Source of the DNA: a virus
IMG/VR virus record: IMGVR_UViG_3300028384_000657
Span: 10,152-74,151 of that record
Length of the DNA stretch: 64,000 bases
Strand: one strand, 5' to 3'
Part shown: piece after piece, positions 7,610 to 47,885 of the stretch
Layout of the letters: each line of letters opens with the position of its first letter
Numbering within the stretch: the first letter of the stretch is position 1
Translations under genes and position numbers: made by a program
Notes under the pieces: model-generated
Database searches by the model: none
What the model was told of the DNA's origin: nothing
The model's input: only the letters and a program-made list of their open reading frames with translations

Positions 7610-8551
7610 ATGAATGATTTCCTCTGGGTAGAAAAGTATCGTCCTCAGAAAGTTGAGGAGTGCATTCTACCCGAATCTGTGAAGCACACCTTCCAGAGTT
7701 TTATTGATCAGGGTGAGATTCCTAATCTCCTGCTTTCTGGAACTGCTGGTGTTGGTAAGACTACTATTGCTAAAGCACTCTGTAACGAACTAGGAGCAGA
7801 TTATTATGTTATCAATGGGTCCGATGAAGGTCGATTCCTGGATACTGTACGCAATCAAGCAAAAAACTTTGCTTCTACTGTGTCTCTCACTGCTTCTGCT
7901 CGTCACAAGGTTCTTATCATCGATGAGGCAGACAATACAACACCTGATGTTCAACTTCTACTCAGGGCGTCGATTGAGGAGTTTCAAAAGAACTGTCGAT
8001 TCATCTTTACTTGTAACTTCAAGAACAAGATCATCGAGCCGCTACATAGTAGGACGACTGTCGTAGAGTTCAATGTTCGTGGACAGACTAAGCAAGAGTT
8101 GGCAGGTGCTTTCTTCAATAGGTGCCAAGATATCCTCAAACGCGAGGAGGTCGCCTTCCAACCTAGAGTTGTTGCTGAAGTCGTACAGAAATACTTCCCC
8201 GACTTCCGACGCACCCTCAACGAACTCCAGCGATATGCAAGCACAGGGTCTATCGACACTGGCATTCTGGCGACGCTAGGTGATGCAAACATCAACACCC
8301 TGGTCGATAGTCTCAAGAACAAGAAATTCAACGATGTAAAAAAGTGGGTAACACAGAACCTTGATTCTGATCCCACATCTATCATGCGTAAACTCTATGA
8401 TAATCTGTCTACTGTGATGGACGGTCCTAGTGTTGCCGCTGCTGTTCTAATTATTGCTGAGTATCAATACAAGTCTGCATTTGTTGTAGACCAAGAAATT
8501 AATCTGCTCGCTTGTCTTACTCAACTAATGCTGGAGTGTAATTTCAAATGA
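7610..8551 (+). CDS. gp44: Clamp loader large subunit
   Basis: WVEKYRP, GTAGVGKT, IIDEAD. Confidence 0.95.
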   Translation: MNDFLWVEKYRPQKVEECILPESVKHTFQSFIDQGEIPNLLLSGTAGVGKTTIAKALCNELGADYYVINGSDEGRFLDTVRNQAKNFASTVSLTASARHKVLIIDEADNTTPDVQLLLRASIEEFQKNCRFIFTCNFKNKIIEPLHSRTTVVEFNVRGQTKQELAGAFFNRCQDILKREEVAFQPRVVAEVVQKYFPDFRRTLNELQRYASTGSIDTGILATLGDANINTLVDSLKNKKFNDVKKWVTQNLDSDPTSIMRKLYDNLSTVMDGPSVAAAVLIIAEYQYKSAFVVDQEINLLACLTQLMLECNFK

Positions 8552-10065: not shown

Positions 10066-10493
10066 GTGAACTTAACGAAGTTCAGTGGACAAAAGATGAT
10101 ATGGTTGAGGTGAACCTAAAGGAACCAGATGATTTCCTGAAGGTCCGTGAAACTCTTACCCGTATTGGTGTCGCGTCGAGAAAAGAAAAGAAACTTTATC
10201 AATCCTGCCATATCTTACATAAGAAGGGTCAGTATTATATCGTTCACTTCAAGGAACTATTTGCGTTGGATGGTAAGAAAGTAAATCTTTCTGAAAATGA
10301 TGTTCAACGTAGAAATAGAATTGTAAAACTTCTTTCCGACTGGGGATTGGTAGAGATTGTAAAGGAGGCAGTTGTCTCTGATGCTGCTCCACTCAGTCAG
10401 ATTAAAGTGATCGCCTATAAAGATAAGGGCGAATGGATTCTAGAATCCAAATATAACATTGGGAAGAAACGTCAAACAAATGAGCACTCATGA
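10062..10493 (+). CDS. regA: Translational repressor RegA
   Basis: DDFLKVRETLTRIG, LYQSCHILHK, YYIVHFKELF. Confidence 0.95.
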   Translation: MSELNEVQWTKDDMVEVNLKEPDDFLKVRETLTRIGVASRKEKKLYQSCHILHKKGQYYIVHFKELFALDGKKVNLSENDVQRRNRIVKLLSDWGLVEIVKEAVVSDAAPLSQIKVIAYKDKGEWILESKYNIGKKRQTNEHS

Positions 10494-37551: not shown

Positions 37552-39845
37552 AAGAAATTCATGTAATCAAGCGTAGTGGTGAGAAAACACCCCTAGACCT
37601 TGATAAGATCCATGCAATGGCAGAACACGCCTGTAGAGGTCTTGCAGGTGTCTCTGAGAGTCAGGTTGAGATGAATGCCAACCTGCAATTTTTTGATGGT
37701 ATTAAGACTTCGGACATTCAAGAAATCTTGATCCGTTCGGCAAATGATTTGATTTCCCTGGAGTCTCCAAACTATCAGTTTGTTGCTGCTCGTCTTCTCT
37801 TGTTTAGTTTGAGAAAGGCAGTGTACAATGGTCATCCTGATGGGCACCCTCCTTTACTAGAGCATGTCAAAAAGTGTGTGGACATGGGCGTCTATGATGA
37901 TGGTATTCTCAGCAAATACTCTGAGGAGGAGTGGGAGAAACTGAATAGTTTCATGGATCATGACCGAGACTATTTGTTTACATATGCTGGCATTAGACAA
38001 GTAGCAGATAAATACCTTGTACAAGATAGAAGCAGTGGCGAAGTTTACGAAACGCCCCAGTTCATGTATATGATGGTGGCAGCGACACTGTTCCAAGATG
38101 ATGATAAGTTCTATCGTCTCGAATACGTCAAAAAGTATTATGACGCAATCTCCAAACACCGACTCAACATTCCCACACCTATCATGGCAGGGGTGCGAAC
38201 TCCACTTCGACAATTTGCGAGCTGTGTTCTTGTTGATGTTGATGACACCCTCGATAGCATCTTTAGTAGCGACATGGCTATTGGTCACTACGTTGCACAA
38301 CGTGCTGGTATCGGCATCAACGCAGGCAGAATCAGGGGTATCAACGCTAAAATCAGGGGCGGTGAAGTTCAGCACACAGGCGTTATTCCATTTCTCAAAA
38401 AGTTTGAGGCAACTGTCAGATGCTGCACTCAAAATGGAATCCGAGGTGGATCAGCTACTGTCCACTTTCCAATCTGGCACCAAGAAATCCAAGACATCAT
38501 CGTCCTAAAGAATAATAAAGGAACTGAGGACAACCGAGTCCGTAAGTTAGACTACAGTATTCAGTTCAGTAAACTCTTCTATGAGCGATTCATCTCCAAC
38601 GGTATCATCTCCCTCTTCAGTCCTCACGACGTGCCAGGTCTTTATGATGCTTTTGGTACTGATTCATTTGATAGTCTCTATGTGGACTATGAATCAGATC
38701 TCTCTATTCCAAGACAGACTATCGGCGCTCAAGAACTCATTCTTAGTCTCCTGAAGGAGAGAGCAGAGACTGGTCGTATTTACATTATGAATATTGACCA
38801 CTGTAATACTCACTCGTCCTTTAAGGATAAGGTTACTATGTCTAACCTTTGTCAGGAGATTACTCTTCCGACTGATCCTATCAATCATATTGATGGGTTG
38901 GGTGAGATTGCTTTGTGTATCCTGTCTGCTATCAACGTTGGTAAACTGAAGTCTCTTGATGAACTGGATGAACTGTGTGAACTGGCAGTTCGTGGTCTGG
39001 ATGCTCTGATTGACTATCAGCAATATCCTGTTAAGGCAGCAGAGAATAGCACTAAGAATCGTCGCTCTCTTGGTATTGGGTTCATTGGTCTGGCACATTA
39101 TCTTGCTAAGCATGGTGCCAACTATGATTCGCAGAAGGCGCATGACCTCGTTCATAAACTCACTGAGAGGTTCCAGTTTGCTCTTCTAACAGCGTCTAAT
39201 CGTATGGCAATGGAGAAGGGTCCTTGCGGTTATTTTGGTAAAACCAAATACGCTGATGGAATACTTCCTATCGATACATATAAGAAGGAAGTGGACGAAA
39301 TTGTACCGAATGATCTTTCATGTGATTGGGAATATCTCAGGGGACGGATTGTTGAGTACGGACTACGGCACAGCACGTTGTCCGCACAGATGCCTTCGGA
39401 GAGCAGCTCCGTTGTGTCAAACGCTACCAATGGAATCGAGCCGCCTCGCGACTACTTGTCCGTTAAGAAATCAAAGAAAGGACCTCTTAAGCAAATTGTG
39501 CCATCTTATACAACCCTCAAGGGAGCATACACCCTCCTCTGGGACATGCACAACAACGACGGATACATCAAAGTTACCGCCGTAATGCAGAAGTTCTTTG
39601 ATCAGGCAATTAGTGGTAACTGGAGTTACAATCCAGAGAATTATTCTGATAATGAAGTGCCTGTTTCTGAGATGGCAAAAGATCTTTTGACCACTTACAA
39701 GTATGGTTGGAAGACATCTTATTATCAAAACACATATGATAATAAGAAAGACGGAGAAGAGGTTGAACAAACTCCATCCGTAGATAATTTAATTGACCAA
39801 CTTATCACAGAAGAGGAAGATGACTGCGAGTCCTGTAAAATCTGA
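37548..39845 (+). CDS. nrdA: Ribonucleotide reductase class Ia alpha subunit
   Basis: ATP cone, ASCV, SNLCQE, SYY, C-terminal CESC. Confidence 0.97.
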   Translation: MKEIHVIKRSGEKTPLDLDKIHAMAEHACRGLAGVSESQVEMNANLQFFDGIKTSDIQEILIRSANDLISLESPNYQFVAARLLLFSLRKAVYNGHPDGHPPLLEHVKKCVDMGVYDDGILSKYSEEEWEKLNSFMDHDRDYLFTYAGIRQVADKYLVQDRSSGEVYETPQFMYMMVAATLFQDDDKFYRLEYVKKYYDAISKHRLNIPTPIMAGVRTPLRQFASCVLVDVDDTLDSIFSSDMAIGHYVAQRAGIGINAGRIRGINAKIRGGEVQHTGVIPFLKKFEATVRCCTQNGIRGGSATVHFPIWHQEIQDIIVLKNNKGTEDNRVRKLDYSIQFSKLFYERFISNGIISLFSPHDVPGLYDAFGTDSFDSLYVDYESDLSIPRQTIGAQELILSLLKERAETGRIYIMNIDHCNTHSSFKDKVTMSNLCQEITLPTDPINHIDGLGEIALCILSAINVGKLKSLDELDELCELAVRGLDALIDYQQYPVKAAENSTKNRRSLGIGFIGLAHYLAKHGANYDSQKAHDLVHKLTERFQFALLTASNRMAMEKGPCGYFGKTKYADGILPIDTYKKEVDEIVPNDLSCDWEYLRGRIVEYGLRHSTLSAQMPSESSSVVSNATNGIEPPRDYLSVKKSKKGPLKQIVPSYTTLKGAYTLLWDMHNNDGYIKVTAVMQKFFDQAISGNWSYNPENYSDNEVPVSEMAKDLLTTYKYGWKTSYYQNTYDNKKDGEEVEQTPSVDNLIDQLITEEEDDCESCKI

Positions 39846-40986
39846 AGTAGAAGGAATGACCGTATTTAACAAAACCAAAGTAGACACAAAAAATCAACCT
39901 ATGTTCTTTGGGCAACCTCTTGGTGTCCAAAGATATGACGAATATAAGTATCCTGTATTTGACAAATTGACCCAGCAGCAACTGGGATATTTCTGGAGAC
40001 CAGAAGAAGTATCATTACAAAAGGACCGCAGTGATTACCAAACTTTATCGGAACAGCAAAGGCACATTTTTACCAGCAATCTTAAATACCAAATCATGCT
40101 GGATTCTGTACAAGGGCGCGGTCCTGGGATGGCTTTTATCCCTTACTGCTCACTCCCTGAACTAGAAGCATGTATGACAGTATGGGAATTTATGGAGATG
40201 ATCCATAGTCGTTCCTATACATATATTATTAAGAATGTATATTCTAATCCTGGTGATGTCTTTGACACTATCTTGGATGATGAGAATGTAATGTCTCGTG
40301 CCTCATCAGTTACTGAATCGTATGATAGTTTCATCGAACATGCTCATCAGTATGATGGCAGCACTATGTGGGATCTTGCAAGAGAAGGTCACCAGGGTGG
40401 ACAATGGGAACGCCGTGAGTTGAAGCGTAAACTCTATAGAGCAATTGCTAATGTCAATATCCTCGAAGGAATCCGTTTCTATGTGTCGTTTGCGTGCTCG
40501 TTTGCTTTTGGCGAGAATAAACTTATGGAGGGCTCGGCTAAGATTCTCTCTCTTATCGCTAGAGATGAAAGCCAACACCTGGTTATCACGCAAAATATCC
40601 TCAGAAAATGGTCAGAAGGAGACGACCCAGAAATGAAACTGATTGCTCAGGAGGAGCAATCATATGTCACTGAAATGTTTAAGCGTACTGTAGAAGAAGA
40701 GAAAGCGTGGGCTAATTATCTTTTCAGAGATGGTAGTTTGATTGGACTTAACGATCGTTTGTTGTATAACTATGTTGAGTGGATTGCAAATCGTAGGATG
40801 AAGGCAGTCGGTATCAAACCGATTTACGACATTCCTGCAAAGAACAATCCTCTTCCTTGGACTGAGCACTGGCTCAATTCTAAGGGACAACAAAACGCAC
40901 CTCAGGAAACGGAGATTGAATCGTATGTCGTCGGAGGAATTAAACAAGATGTCACAGCAGGAACCTTCGCTGGATTCTCTTTGTGA
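39820..40986 (+). CDS. nrdB: Ribonucleotide reductase beta subunit
   Basis: FWRPEE, EMIHSRSY, EGIRFY, RDESQH, APQETE. Confidence 0.97.
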   Translation: MTASPVKSEVEGMTVFNKTKVDTKNQPMFFGQPLGVQRYDEYKYPVFDKLTQQQLGYFWRPEEVSLQKDRSDYQTLSEQQRHIFTSNLKYQIMLDSVQGRGPGMAFIPYCSLPELEACMTVWEFMEMIHSRSYTYIIKNVYSNPGDVFDTILDDENVMSRASSVTESYDSFIEHAHQYDGSTMWDLAREGHQGGQWERRELKRKLYRAIANVNILEGIRFYVSFACSFAFGENKLMEGSAKILSLIARDESQHLVITQNILRKWSEGDDPEMKLIAQEEQSYVTEMFKRTVEEEKAWANYLFRDGSLIGLNDRLLYNYVEWIANRRMKAVGIKPIYDIPAKNNPLPWTEHWLNSKGQQNAPQETEIESYVVGGIKQDVTAGTFAGFSL

Positions 40987-41254: not shown

Positions 41255-41262
41255 TATAAATA
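41255..41262 (+). promoter_or_regulatory. T4-type late promoter
   Basis: TATAAATA. Confidence 0.7.
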
Positions 41263-41277
41263 TAAATGTAGCAATAC

Positions 41278-41293
41278 TGTATTAGTCGCTACA
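41278..41293. promoter_or_regulatory. Putative NtcA binding site
   Basis: TGTA-TTAGTCGC-TACA matches TGTA-N8-TACA exactly. Confidence 0.55.
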
Positions 41294-41310
41294 ACTTATA
41301 CGTTCATCCA

Positions 41311-41511
41311 ATGTTTAGTATCTTACTGGCATTGACCCTTGCCCATCATAATGACGGGTCACCTTATGGGTGGCACATGAGTTGTGAAAGGTTTCTACAG
41401 AGAAGAGTTGAAATCCTTATGGATGACAACTTAGATCGTCGCACCAAGTATAACCTTATTGGTTATCTTAAGTCGAAGGTAGAAGGTCAGTGTGATAGTA
41501 TGCTAATCTAG
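41311..41511 (+). CDS. Small protein inside riboswitch loop 1 (66 aa, C-x35-C)
   Basis: ATG 2 nt after CGTTCATCC; TAG overlaps GGACGCAA. Confidence 0.65.
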   Translation: MFSILLALTLAHHNDGSPYGWHMSCERFLQRRVEILMDDNLDRRTKYNLIGYLKSKVEGQCDSMLI

Positions 41512-41546
41512 GACGCAAGTAAGTCGCGGAACGGAGCGTTCATCCC

Positions 41547-41708
41547 ATGTTTGAGTTATTACTCTATTCTAATATTGCTTGTGCTGATGCTATCGAAATG
41601 ATCGAGCGTATCAGCAAACATGAGCATATGGAAGCAGCAATCAGGACAGAGCTTATTGAAGTAATTCAAGAAGCAACCCCCGAGTGTCCATGGGACGCAA
41701 ACGACTGA
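41547..41708 (+). CDS. Small protein inside riboswitch loop 2 (53 aa, C-x34-C, ends WDAND)
   Basis: MFELLLYSNIACADA...ECPWDAND*; below the ORF-track size cutoff. Confidence 0.65.
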   Translation: MFELLLYSNIACADAIEMIERISKHEHMEAAIRTELIEVIQEATPECPWDAND

Positions 41709-41774
41709 AGGAACGGGTAACGGATCCTCCGAGAGGAGAGAAGGTTAATCACCCTATTATTTCAGGAGTCAATT

Positions 41775-41942
41775 ATGAACACCCTCAATCTCATTAGAAA
41801 GCAGATCAATAAAGCATCTGCCCTTCACGACGCACAGATCTTTCATACCACATACCGTGGTGTCAAGTACGATGTAAACTGTGCTGAGCAAAAGGATGCC
41901 CATGGCACCTATTGCTATCGTGGACATGTCTATATCAAGTGA
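41775..41942 (+). CDS. DUF4278-like YRG peptide (55 aa)
   Basis: SD aggag; TYRGVKY and CYRGHVY. Confidence 0.75.
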   Translation: MNTLNLIRKQINKASALHDAQIFHTTYRGVKYDVNCAEQKDAHGTYCYRGHVYIK

Positions 41943-41949
41943 GGTAGAC

Positions 41950-42045
41950 ATGTTAGCACTACAAACAGTCGGATTGGTGTCTGTTGGATGTGTAGCATTC
42001 ATCGGCATGATCTATGGAGAACTTATCCTTTTACAAAGAGTATAA
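41950..42045 (+). CDS. 31-aa hydrophobic peptide
   Basis: SD gaggt; single TM segment. Confidence 0.55.
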   Translation: MLALQTVGLVSVGCVAFIGMIYGELILLQRV

Positions 42046-42057
42046 GGAGTAGGACAA

Positions 42058-42216
42058 ATGCTGAAGGTCAGACTCGAATATGACCTTCCAGAATTTGATC
42101 CAGCGAAACACGATCCAGATAAAACGTTCGCGTTTTTAACTTATCGTGGCATACACTATGCTAAATGGGTTAATCTAAAACCCTTTGGTAGCAAATCCTG
42201 GAAGATCAAATTTTGA
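42058..42216 (+). CDS. YRG peptide (52 aa)
   Basis: SD aggag/agga; LTYRGIHY. Confidence 0.7.
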   Translation: MLKVRLEYDLPEFDPAKHDPDKTFAFLTYRGIHYAKWVNLKPFGSKSWKIKF

Positions 42217-42225
42217 TTTCCACAC

Positions 42226-42250
42226 AAAGGACCCAAACGGGTCCTTTTTT
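42226..42250 (+). terminator. Intrinsic terminator
   Basis: AAAGGACCC-AAAC-GGGTCCTTT plus T-run. Confidence 0.85.
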
Positions 42251-42286
42251 GCTATCCTAAATAGGTACAACCTATACAGGAGAGTC

Positions 42287-42943
42287 ATGAAACTATTTCT
42301 GGACTGTTCTGACCCAGAACTTATTGCCTCTGCCTTCGAGACTGGTTTAATTGATGGAGCTACTACAAACCCCAGTCTTATGCTGAAAGCGGGTAAAGAC
42401 CCGATGCAAGTAATCAAAGAAATTTCCTCTATCTTCCCTTGGAATGCTTCAGTATCCGCTGAAGTTGTTGGAGATACTGCAGAGGAAATGCTTGATATGG
42501 CAGAAGATTATCTGGAGATCGGACCAAACATTACTATCAAAGTTCCCTGCACTATAGAAGGTCTAAAAGCATGTAGAGAACTTGCAGACGACGATGTACC
42601 TGTAAACGTAACACTAATTTTCAGCACGGCACAAGCATTACTAGCTGCGAAAGCGGGAGCAACATATGTTTCTCCTTTCGTTGGTCGTGTATTTGATCAA
42701 CACTGGGATGGAATTCACCTTATTGAGGAGATTGCAGATGTCTTCGCTACTCATGAACTCAAGACAGAAGTTCTTGCCGCTTCTATTAGAGAACCTGTTC
42801 AAGTCTCCGACGCTTTTAGAGTGGGAGCTGATATATGTACTCTACCGCTTCCCATCTTTTACAAACTCTATAAACATATTCTCACTGACAAGGGTTTAGA
42901 ACTCTTTGATCAGGATTGGAAATCGCTTCAAGAAAAATTGTGA
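42287..42943 (+). CDS. talC: Transaldolase (TalC/Fsa family)
   Basis: MKLFLD, GATTNPSL, IKVP, YVSPFVGR, AASIR. Confidence 0.95.
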   Translation: MKLFLDCSDPELIASAFETGLIDGATTNPSLMLKAGKDPMQVIKEISSIFPWNASVSAEVVGDTAEEMLDMAEDYLEIGPNITIKVPCTIEGLKACRELADDDVPVNVTLIFSTAQALLAAKAGATYVSPFVGRVFDQHWDGIHLIEEIADVFATHELKTEVLAASIREPVQVSDAFRVGADICTLPLPIFYKLYKHILTDKGLELFDQDWKSLQEKL

Positions 42944-43731: not shown

Positions 43732-43896
43732 ATGCACATCGACTTTGAACCTGAAACTGAAACCTCTCTTGAGGAACAGTATCTAGATCAACTCATCGAT
43801 CAACTTCACACTCTCGCTGAGAGAGGATTTGAAGAAGACGCTAAGCGTCTCAATGTGTCTATCAACTCTGCCCATAAGATTCTAATGGGTCAGTAG
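43732..43896 (+). CDS. Small hypothetical protein (54 aa); stop codon lies within the tRNA
   Basis: SD gaggg; MHIDFEPE...LMGQ*. Confidence 0.55.
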   Translation: MHIDFEPETETSLEEQYLDQLIDQLHTLAERGFEEDAKRLNVSINSAHKILMGQ

Positions 43897-43959
43897 TTCA
43901 GCGGATAGAACAACGCTCTTCTAAAGCGTTTGTCGGGGGTTCGATTCCCTCCTGACCCG
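43887..43959 (+). tRNA. tRNA-Arg(TCT)
   Basis: Acceptor GGGTCAG/CTGACCC; anticodon loop CTTCTAA; T-loop GGTTCGATTCC; no encoded CCA. Confidence 0.93.
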
Positions 43960-47740: not shown

Positions 47741-47779
47741 GGTAAACAAATGTAAAGCACATCGCTTTTCCTTTATACT

Positions 47780-47885
47780 ACTCCCCGCAAACCGAGACCT
47801 CTAGGGAGTCAAAATTACGTCTCTCATACCTCTGCTTAGGGTGCAGAGGAATAGTAACTCCACCATGTCCCTGATGGTCTTACTT
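47780..47885 (+). ncRNA. PhotoRC-II-like RNA in the psbA 5' UTR
   Basis: ACTCCC/GGGAGT with GAGAC/GTCTC pseudoknot; CCTCTGC/GCAGAGG; ACCAT/ATGGT; AGGG/CCCT loop complementarity. Confidence 0.75.

Follow-up and report, generated by a model that had tools for sequence, protein, structure and literature searches.

The DNA analyzed here, referred to as the window, is a 64,000-nucleotide (nt) stretch of the IMG/VR virus record IMGVR_UViG_3300028384_000657 (positions 10,152 to 74,151 of that record; all coordinates below are those of the window). It is derived from a T4-like cyanomyovirus, and its nearest named relatives are phages Syn2 and Syn19 (89% identity). Between nrdB (39793-40986) and a transaldolase gene (42185-42943), the window contains an element in which strands of a glutamine aptamer alternate with two complete open reading frames (ORFs), ORF1 and ORF2, and which is followed by two further small genes, ORF3 and ORF4 (Table 1). 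The region 41301-41768 is interpreted as the leader of a small phage operon that forms one composite glutamine riboswitch, a reading that rests on sequence analysis and to which we assign a probability of about 0.6. An earlier note, prepared from the letters of the window, had proposed a double glutamine riboswitch with a whole gene in each loop; all of the coordinates it gave proved exact when re-read.

Table 1. Features of the composite element and of the adjacent operon.
Feature	Position	Strand	Evidence or remark
CGTTCATCC	41301-09 and 41537-45	+	exact words in the window
Strand a, CGUUC (outer P1, 5′ strand)	41301-05	+	pairs with 41711-15; invariant in the alignment
Outer P2, 5′ strand, UCC	41307-09	+	partner strand 41511-13, beyond ORF1
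ORF1 (66 aa), in the P2 loop	41311-41511	+	phrog_6471, E 2e-38, 66/66 positions
GGACGCAAGTAAGTCG	41511-26	+	followed by C, GGAACG (41528-33) and GAG (41534-36)
Outer P2, 3′ strand, GGA	41511-13	+	covariation
CGC (corresponding to ligand-site C17-G18-C19) and AAGUA (E-loop, 5′ half)	41514-21	+	invariant
P3, 5′ strand, AGUCG	41522-26	+	partner strand 41702-06, beyond the inner aptamer and ORF2
Inner P1 hairpin: strand b GGAACG, loop GAG, strand c CGUUC	41528-41541	+	covariation; present in the unconstrained minimum free energy (MFE) fold
P2′, 5′ strand, UCCCAUG (TCCCATG)	41543-49	+	contains the ORF2 start codon (41547-49); all seven pairs in the MFE fold
ORF2 (53 aa), in the P2′ loop	41547-41708	+	phrog_504, E 2e-23, 53/53 positions
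P2′, 3′ strand, CAUGGGA (41689-95), then inner CGC and AAA joiner	41689-41701	+	
CATGGGACGCAAACGACTGAAGGAACGG	after ORF2	+	exact in the window
P3, 3′ strand, CGACU	41702-06	+	covariation with 41522-26
E-loop, 3′ half, GAAG	41707-10	+	matches consensus columns in the compact forms
Strand d, GAACG (outer P1, 3′ strand)	41711-15	+	compensatory changes with strand a
Platform helix GGGU/ACCC, enclosing the optional module	41716-41754	+	outer helix 67% paired (alignment)
Optional module: ACGGAUC, 4-bp stem with GNRA loop (41727-38), AGAAGGUUAAU	within 41720-41750	+	about one quarter of relatives
Switch strand UUUCAG (41760-65)	41760-41768	+	pairs with CUGAAG (41705-10); overlaps the ORF3 Shine-Dalgarno sequence AGGAG (41764-68)
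ORF3 (55 aa), two YRG motifs	41775-41942	+	phrog_545, E 6e-32
ORF4 (52 aa), LTYRG motif	42058-42216	+	phrog_6192
Terminator-like hairpin	42226-47	+	terminator scan; 3′ of ORF4, closes the module

Comparative analysis revealed that three blocks of the element (41301-09, 41511-49 and 41691-41716) are almost unchanged in hundreds of sequences from cyanomyoviruses, and that the ORFs lying between them vary as coding DNA. Seven named phages, among which the intervening ORFs differ mostly at wobble positions, share the 38-nt central block and both flanking blocks without any change. Isolates Syn19, Syn2, S-IOM18 and S-CAM1 have ORFs in both loops. The short word CGTTCATCC is found twice in the window (0.41 copies expected), so that such short words taken alone represent a modest excess over chance; the weight of the evidence lies in the comparison between phages.

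The assignment of these blocks to glutamine aptamers, as claimed in the earlier note, was upheld by natural relatives that lack the long loops and that stood in for an in silico deletion of the loops from the window letters. Three fully compact relatives (L017, at 8336-8422, L021 and L108), with a core identical to that of the window, score 43.6-46.4 bits with the Glutamine-I model RF01739 and align to it as one aptamer carrying a 38-nt insertion in P3. No Rfam match was obtained for eleven ORF-bearing loci scanned beside them. Likewise, nothing above the gathering cut-offs (35 bits for RF01739 and 33 bits for the Glutamine-II model RF01704) was detected with these two models in the assembly of the window or in five related whole phage genomes. 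Since the short-loop relatives with the identical core pass the RF01739 cut-off, it is the long insertions that cause the window to miss it. The distance between the CGTTCA word and the returning strand is bimodal, measuring about 20-56 nt where the loop is a plain hairpin and about 180-240 nt where it holds an ORF. Among 189 unique loci, 44 carry an ORF in both loops, as does the window, 86 have a hairpin in loop 1 and an ORF in loop 2, 34 have two hairpins, and five have an ORF in loop 1 and a hairpin in loop 2.

The ligand site can be recognized base by base. The contacts described in PMC6698751 (C1:G40, G2:C39 with G18, and C19:G41), from which the roles of the equivalent bases were taken, have identical equivalents in both cores of the element, and the combination of CGC with GGAACGG in each core corresponds to the C:G form of the long-range pair that is typical of type II (PMC6698751). 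By analogy with the C:G linchpin of the same source, G41716 is a candidate partner of C41516. In the outer core, P1 (CGUUC/GAACG) closes a three-way junction, P2 follows directly after A6 and is supported by covariation, and the E-loop AAGUA/GAA (41517-21 and 41707-10) lies beside P3, all of which are features of Glutamine-I. The region 41514-21 matches RF01739 consensus columns in the compact relatives. The outer CGC is replaced by UGC in a minority of relatives, and the GAAG strand of the E-loop shows a G-to-A variant in 31 of the first 127 loci. In place of the short P3 hairpin of Glutamine-I, P3 encloses a second core (34-38 nt in the compact forms, with the addition of ORF2 in the window). 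This inner core, which caps P3, is circularly permuted: its P1 is the hairpin 41529-41, followed by P2′ (41543-49/41689-95) and its own CGC.

The element contains two CGUUC strands (a and c) and two GGAACG strands (b and d), and may thus be drawn in two ways, either nested (a paired with d, b with c) or as two side-by-side Glutamine-II-like aptamers (a with b, c with d). Each half indeed has the order CGUUC, stem, CGC, 11-nt joiner and GGAACGG, and the inner unit of the compact relative L017 yields 25.9 bits with RF01704. However, this score lies below the cut-off of 33 and was obtained with the P2 columns deleted, the P2 helix of RF01704 being absent. The question was settled by a scan of IMG/VR that was constrained only to a non-G base at one position of strand b. 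In 66/66 loci (47 distinct sequences) in which strand b reads GCAACG, strand c reads CGUUG, and in 47 of these loci strands a and d are still CGUUC and GGAACG. Nine other loci combine CGUUU at strand a with GAAACG at strand d (a compensatory U:A pair) and have an unaltered b-c G:C pair. Both sets of changes would produce mismatches in the side-by-side arrangement. The varying P1 pair is equivalent to C5:G36, and in the ligand helix only this pair and one other are not conserved (PMC6698751). The compensatory changes join a to d and b to c. They bear out the nested fold put forward in the earlier note and contradict the tandem alternative that it had also allowed; we rejected the side-by-side doublet and regard it as very improbable.

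The remaining helices of the nested fold are also supported by covariation. Position 3 of P2 is paired in all 37 unique ORF1-bearing loci (C:G in 21 and U:A in 16), and the compensating stems UCC/GGA, UCUCAUG/CAUGAGA, UCUUAUG/CAUAAGA and UCCGAUG/CAUCGGA occur among them; the identity of the ORF1 stop codon (UAG versus UAA or UGA) shifts together with the 5′ strand of P2. Position 4 of P2′ is C:G in 69 loci, U:A in 15, U.G in three and unpaired in one (n=88). For the P2 and P2′ stems, none of 5000 permutations reached the observed mean stem length. The closing pair of P3 varies between AGUCG/CGACU (126 loci), AGUCA/UGACU (72) and AGUCU/AGACU (3), and no variants of P3 position 4 were found.

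When the complete nested structure was imposed on 41 double-ORF sequences, it was 90.2% paired, compared to 86.6±0.3% in shuffles (0/500 reached the observed value) and 29-52% when the structure was slid as a control. The unconstrained MFE fold of 41298-41780 (−145.8 kcal/mol) contains the inner P1, P2′ and the switch helix described below, and enforcing the complete nested fold on the same region gave −137.2 kcal/mol, the difference being the gap that a ligand would have to pay. Comparison across loci establishes the nested two-core fold, the genes in its loops and the switch helix.

Both loops hold real, conserved genes, as the earlier note had supposed; this conclusion rests on the full-length PHROG matches, codon periodicity, a profile comparison and the constant placement of the AUG described below. 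Codon-position entropy is 0.52/0.37/0.98 for ORF1 and 0.92/0.52/1.25 for ORF2, and in the latter the third-position variation falls to zero in the last five codons. The ORF1 and ORF2 families, each of which has two invariant cysteines, are homologous from Cys to Cys (hhalign probability 94.4%, E 9e-8), and the two genes are, on this comparison, distant paralogues. The ORF1 protein has a hydrophobic N-terminus. An AlphaFold (AF2) model of the ORF2 protein is a two-helix hairpin (mean predicted local distance difference test score, pLDDT, 81.6), for which Foldseek found no PDB match at E≤0.001. Pfam searches with both proteins gave sub-threshold noise only, and a protein atlas search with both returned only unnamed viral clusters.

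The coding sequences are interlocked with the aptamer strands, and the overlap of the stems with start and stop codons that the earlier note described was found as stated: the ORF2 AUG lies in P2′, and the TAG stop codon of ORF1 shares one base with the GGA strand of P2. Some ORF1 relatives continue through GGA CGC AAG UAA and thus end in GRK*. The last codons of ORF2 (TGG GAC GCA AAC GAC TGA, encoding WDAND*) are themselves aptamer strands, with the TGA lying within CUGAAG, and across loci ORF2 always ends in an aptamer-encoded (W)DAND*. Both genes have their start codons in the stems, and in nearly all loci the start codon is placed at a fixed offset of 10 nt from C1. A protein search with the single ORF1 protein identified 80 homologs, and in 80/80 of them CGTTCA immediately precedes the ATG; those with enough sequence also have the returning aptamer block, with minor variants, the exception being one locus (L285) that is broken after the first unit. 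No Shine-Dalgarno sequence was found for ORF1 (0/46 loci). In the case of ORF2, the GAG loop of the inner hairpin builds the sequence GGAG (41533-36) 10 nt before the AUG, which is likely to be the Shine-Dalgarno sequence of this gene. The GAG loop is present in 135/143 loci with ORF2 and in 8/40 loci with a plain hairpin (Fisher p 7e-21, uncorrected for relatedness).

Downstream of the aptamer lies an expression platform. The 6-bp switch helix is formed by UUUCAG and CUGAAG (41705-10), the latter being composed of the end of P3 and the E-loop strand. It is 98.4% paired on the alignment, and its key pair is G:C in 74 loci, A:U in 73 and G.U in 30, with no A.C among the 177 loci. A covarying helix at the ribosome-binding site of ORF3 looks like the platform of a glutamine ON switch, and glutamine riboswitches of types 1 and 2 are ON switches (Klähn 2018). 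ORF3 has a sub-threshold match to Pfam family DUF4278 (PF14105; 21.5 bits, E 3e-4, cut-off 25.3). Its YRG motif is that of the downstream peptides described in the supplement of Weinberg 2010, and peptides of this type have been tied to glutamine aptamers by Weinberg 2010 and Klähn 2018. ORF4 also contains a motif typical of glutamine-aptamer downstream peptides, yet it has no aptamer of its own.

The optional module of the platform has conserved flanks and an inner hairpin in which each of the four pairs covaries; it also holds the words AACGG and GAAGG, which are similar to aptamer strands. The sequence GUUCAU (41302-07, and again at 41538-43) is complementary to AUGAAC at the start of ORF3 (41775-80), and the unconstrained MFE fold pairs 41302-07 with 41775-80. 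In this predicted fold such pairing could serve as an additional means of masking the start of ORF3 while the aptamer is open; the downstream genes of other loci start differently, and the complementarity may be a coincidence.

Taken as a working model, the element would operate as follows. Without glutamine the switch helix would form and ORF3 would be weakly translated, and the open aptamer strands would allow ribosomes to initiate on ORF1 and ORF2. Binding of glutamine, probably one molecule per core, would lock the nested fold. The locked fold would free the Shine-Dalgarno sequence of ORF3 (ON), bury the leader and AUG of ORF1 in P1/P2 (OFF) and bury the GGAG and AUG of ORF2 in the inner P1 and P2′ (OFF). 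Conversely, ribosomes moving along ORF1 and ORF2 would melt the stems, so that translation would feed back on sensing and oppose it. In this model the composite riboswitch would bind glutamine and repress the genes embedded in it, and there is probably competition on one RNA between glutamine sensing and the translation of ORF1 and ORF2. We tentatively extend this to a hybrid of riboswitch and attenuator, a view that may be correct although we hold it with less than even confidence: the two cores would span two translated genes, with both glutamine and ribosome traffic as inputs, the two-Cys proteins being made at low glutamine and the YRG/IF17-like peptide at high glutamine, and the cores would cooperate through the shared P3.

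Several observations weigh against the composite riboswitch and this mode of action. An Rfam search of the window revealed no glutamine riboswitch, either at the gathering cut-off or at E≤10. The inner core has no E-loop, and in a minority of relatives its CGC is changed to CGA with loss of the C19 equivalent, which suggests that the inner core may not bind the ligand everywhere. Positions 6-7 of P2′ are paired in only about one third of loci, and complete pairing of the ORF2 AUG is therefore not general. Since the 3′ strands of P2 and of the outer P1 are transcribed after the ORFs, ribosomes could load before the fold exists. The ORF2 stop codon lies inside CUGAAG, and a ribosome that terminates there could melt the switch helix whether or not glutamine is bound. 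Finally, the Fisher and permutation tests were calculated from loci without correction for relatedness.

A rival explanation is that a real nested switch controls the YRG gene only and that ORF1 and ORF2 are passengers, which settled in the insertion-tolerant loops of a packed genome and are translated independently of glutamine, so that the switch works on ribosome-free copies only. The occurrence of all four loop combinations indicates that the ORFs are dispensable for the RNA; loop 2 is occupied by several unrelated-looking subfamilies, and the incomplete pairing of the ORF2 AUG points in the same direction. Against this explanation, however, stand the constant spacing of the start codon, the lack of a Shine-Dalgarno sequence of its own before ORF1, the building of the ORF2 GGAG from aptamer bases in correlation with the presence of ORF2, and the embedding of 80/80 ORF1 homologs. 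Moreover, the open RNA that a ribosome needs around the AUG amounts to about 30 nt and includes the P1 and P2 strands, which makes full independence of ORF translation physically unlikely. We consider this explanation rather unlikely. A different role for the ribosome was also considered, in which ribosomes stopping at the UGA of ORF2 unwind the switch helix. Expression of ORF3 would then track the translation of ORF2, and glutamine would modulate untranslated copies only. The position of the ORF2 stop, fixed within the switch strand in almost all loci, and the shortness of the switch helix would suit such coupling. Yet relatives with two plain hairpins retain both the switch helix and the platform, which shows that the platform can work without ORF2, and the invariance of the ligand-site bases even at synonymous sites argues that ligand sensing matters in the ORF-bearing forms; coupling of this kind is improbable as the whole explanation. 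It is more improbable still, to the point of being hardly credible, that the element is a relic broken by gene insertions or a set of repeats serving only to shuffle small genes. The two genome contexts of the module, its mosaic ORF content and the truncated L285 copy might suggest this, but the ligand-site bases are perfectly conserved over hundreds of loci, synonymous sites included, compensatory changes are found in five helices, and the expression platform is present and covaries. We therefore retain the composite glutamine riboswitch as the preferred reading.

The element combines features of several known systems. Glutamine-I is exemplified by the leader of Synechocystis gifB, encoding IF17 (PMC6212724), and by the Synechococcus aptamer whose structure was reported by Ren et al. 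2015, as described in PMC6698751. Shared with this class are the CGUUC/GAACG P1 with A6 and P2 immediately following, the CG(N) ligand strand, the AAGUA/GAAG E-loop, the P3 helix, and the location ahead of a YRG/DUF4278-like gene whose ribosome-binding site has a switch helix. In contrast to Glutamine-I, P3 is capped by a second aptamer core and not by a loop, the long-range pair is C:G and not G:C, and genes of about 200 and 140 nt occupy the P2 loops. With Glutamine-II (RF01704; PMC6698751) the element shares the ligand-site bases CGUUC, CGC and GGAACGG, a linchpin of the C19:G41 type, a downstream YRG peptide and a setting in marine picocyanobacteria; it differs from that class in having no type-II P2 helix and in that its ligand helix is a plain hairpin with a GAG triloop and not a pseudoknot.

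The presence of two homologous cores on one transcript is reminiscent of tandem glutamine doublets and triplets (Sherlock et al. 2022, PMC9481103) and of the tandem glycine riboswitch, and by analogy with these the two cores are likely to give a sharper or cooperative response. The doublets of PMC9481103, of which 157 are listed, are described as pseudo-cooperative units standing side by side, whereas here one core lies inside the P3 of the other and a helix is shared; nested forms and phages are unmentioned in that study. Cyanophage glutamine aptamers have been known only as canonical Rfam matches, and just two were listed in cyanophage genomes by McCown et al. 2017. The raw glnA alignment of Weinberg contains one ORF-bearing sequence, the 3′ part of which was left as an unaligned flank without comment. 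No published nested or ORF-containing glutamine riboswitch came to light in the literature, although Ames & Breaker 2011 may mention such forms, and the literature search found no transcriptome paper for phage Syn9.

The loops of the element enclose complete genes, as do the peripheral stems of group I introns in T4-type phages, from which ORFs for homing endonucleases are looped out. In both cases an RNA fold closes around a complete gene, and translation and folding interfere with each other (in the element, according to the model above). The introns, however, are ribozymes carrying mobile endonucleases, in contrast to a metabolite sensor carrying genes for small two-Cys proteins. The proposed competition also resembles leader-peptide attenuation, as in the trp and his operons, where ribosomes on a short ORF within the leader decide the RNA structure. 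The peptides of such attenuators serve as sensors and have no separate function; unlike the element, these leaders have no ligand-binding aptamer.

Analysis of the distribution of the element revealed the exact central block in at least 120 IMG/VR stretches, the P3-variant form in 82 further stretches and the inner-P1-variant form in 66 more. Among GenBank phages the central block is present in 303 records, nearly all of them Synechococcus phages. The region 41301-42180 behaves as a mobile unit and was found in two genome contexts, nrdB-talC and rnh/petE-thyX, between which the timing of expression may differ. A related 17-base pattern gave 34 matches in 185,579 prokaryote species, of which only five (L383, L361, L384, L389 and L376) carry the element. 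Two of these carriers were examined and are cyanophage contigs, either mis-binned or contaminating, and no cellular copy of the element was found with this pattern in that collection. A 188-kb contig filed as Nonlabens xiamenensis 1Q3 shows 98% identity to cyanophage P-TIM40, a Synechococcus metagenome-assembled genome (MAG) has a 194-kb contig that resembles S-H9-1/ACG-2014h, and in the Euryarchaeota TMED129 MAG the element is present on two contigs. Two individual copies have an unusual structure. The broken copy (L285:236-560) ends after GGAACGGAGCG and is followed by an unrelated gene, and another (L255:587-1010) has AGCCGACU on both P3 strands, as though one were a copy of the other.

Most relatives have a TTGACT-N17-TATAAT promoter that ends 4-9 nt 5′ of C1; its −10 sequence lies within a small hairpin abutting C1. 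In these phages the aptamer is the extreme 5′ end of the RNA. A promoter of this (sigma-70) type is absent before the aptamer in the window. Here, the aptamer is preceded by TATAAATA (41255-62), which we take to resemble a T4 late promoter, and then by a leader hairpin GTAGC...GCTAC, both within 41255-41291. Farther downstream of the riboswitch module, the + strand of the window contains a tRNA (43887-43959, 68.6 bits) and a PhotoRC-II RNA (47768-47862, 78.9 bits), both identified with Rfam.

Riboswitches are thought to be rare in phages, and yet the central block described here is present in the 303 GenBank cyanophage records and in hundreds of IMG/VR contigs. Most copies have been invisible to Rfam because genes sit in their loops, which indicates that covariance-model searches systematically miss aptamers with very long loop insertions. 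If the proposed reading is correct, the element would be a nested, two-core glutamine sensor and a natural case in which metabolite sensing is coupled to the translation of embedded genes on one RNA. The small phage protein families phrog_6471 and phrog_504 thereby gain a regulatory context that can be tested, and the arrangement as a whole points to phage control of the nitrogen status of the host by means of IF17-like peptides.

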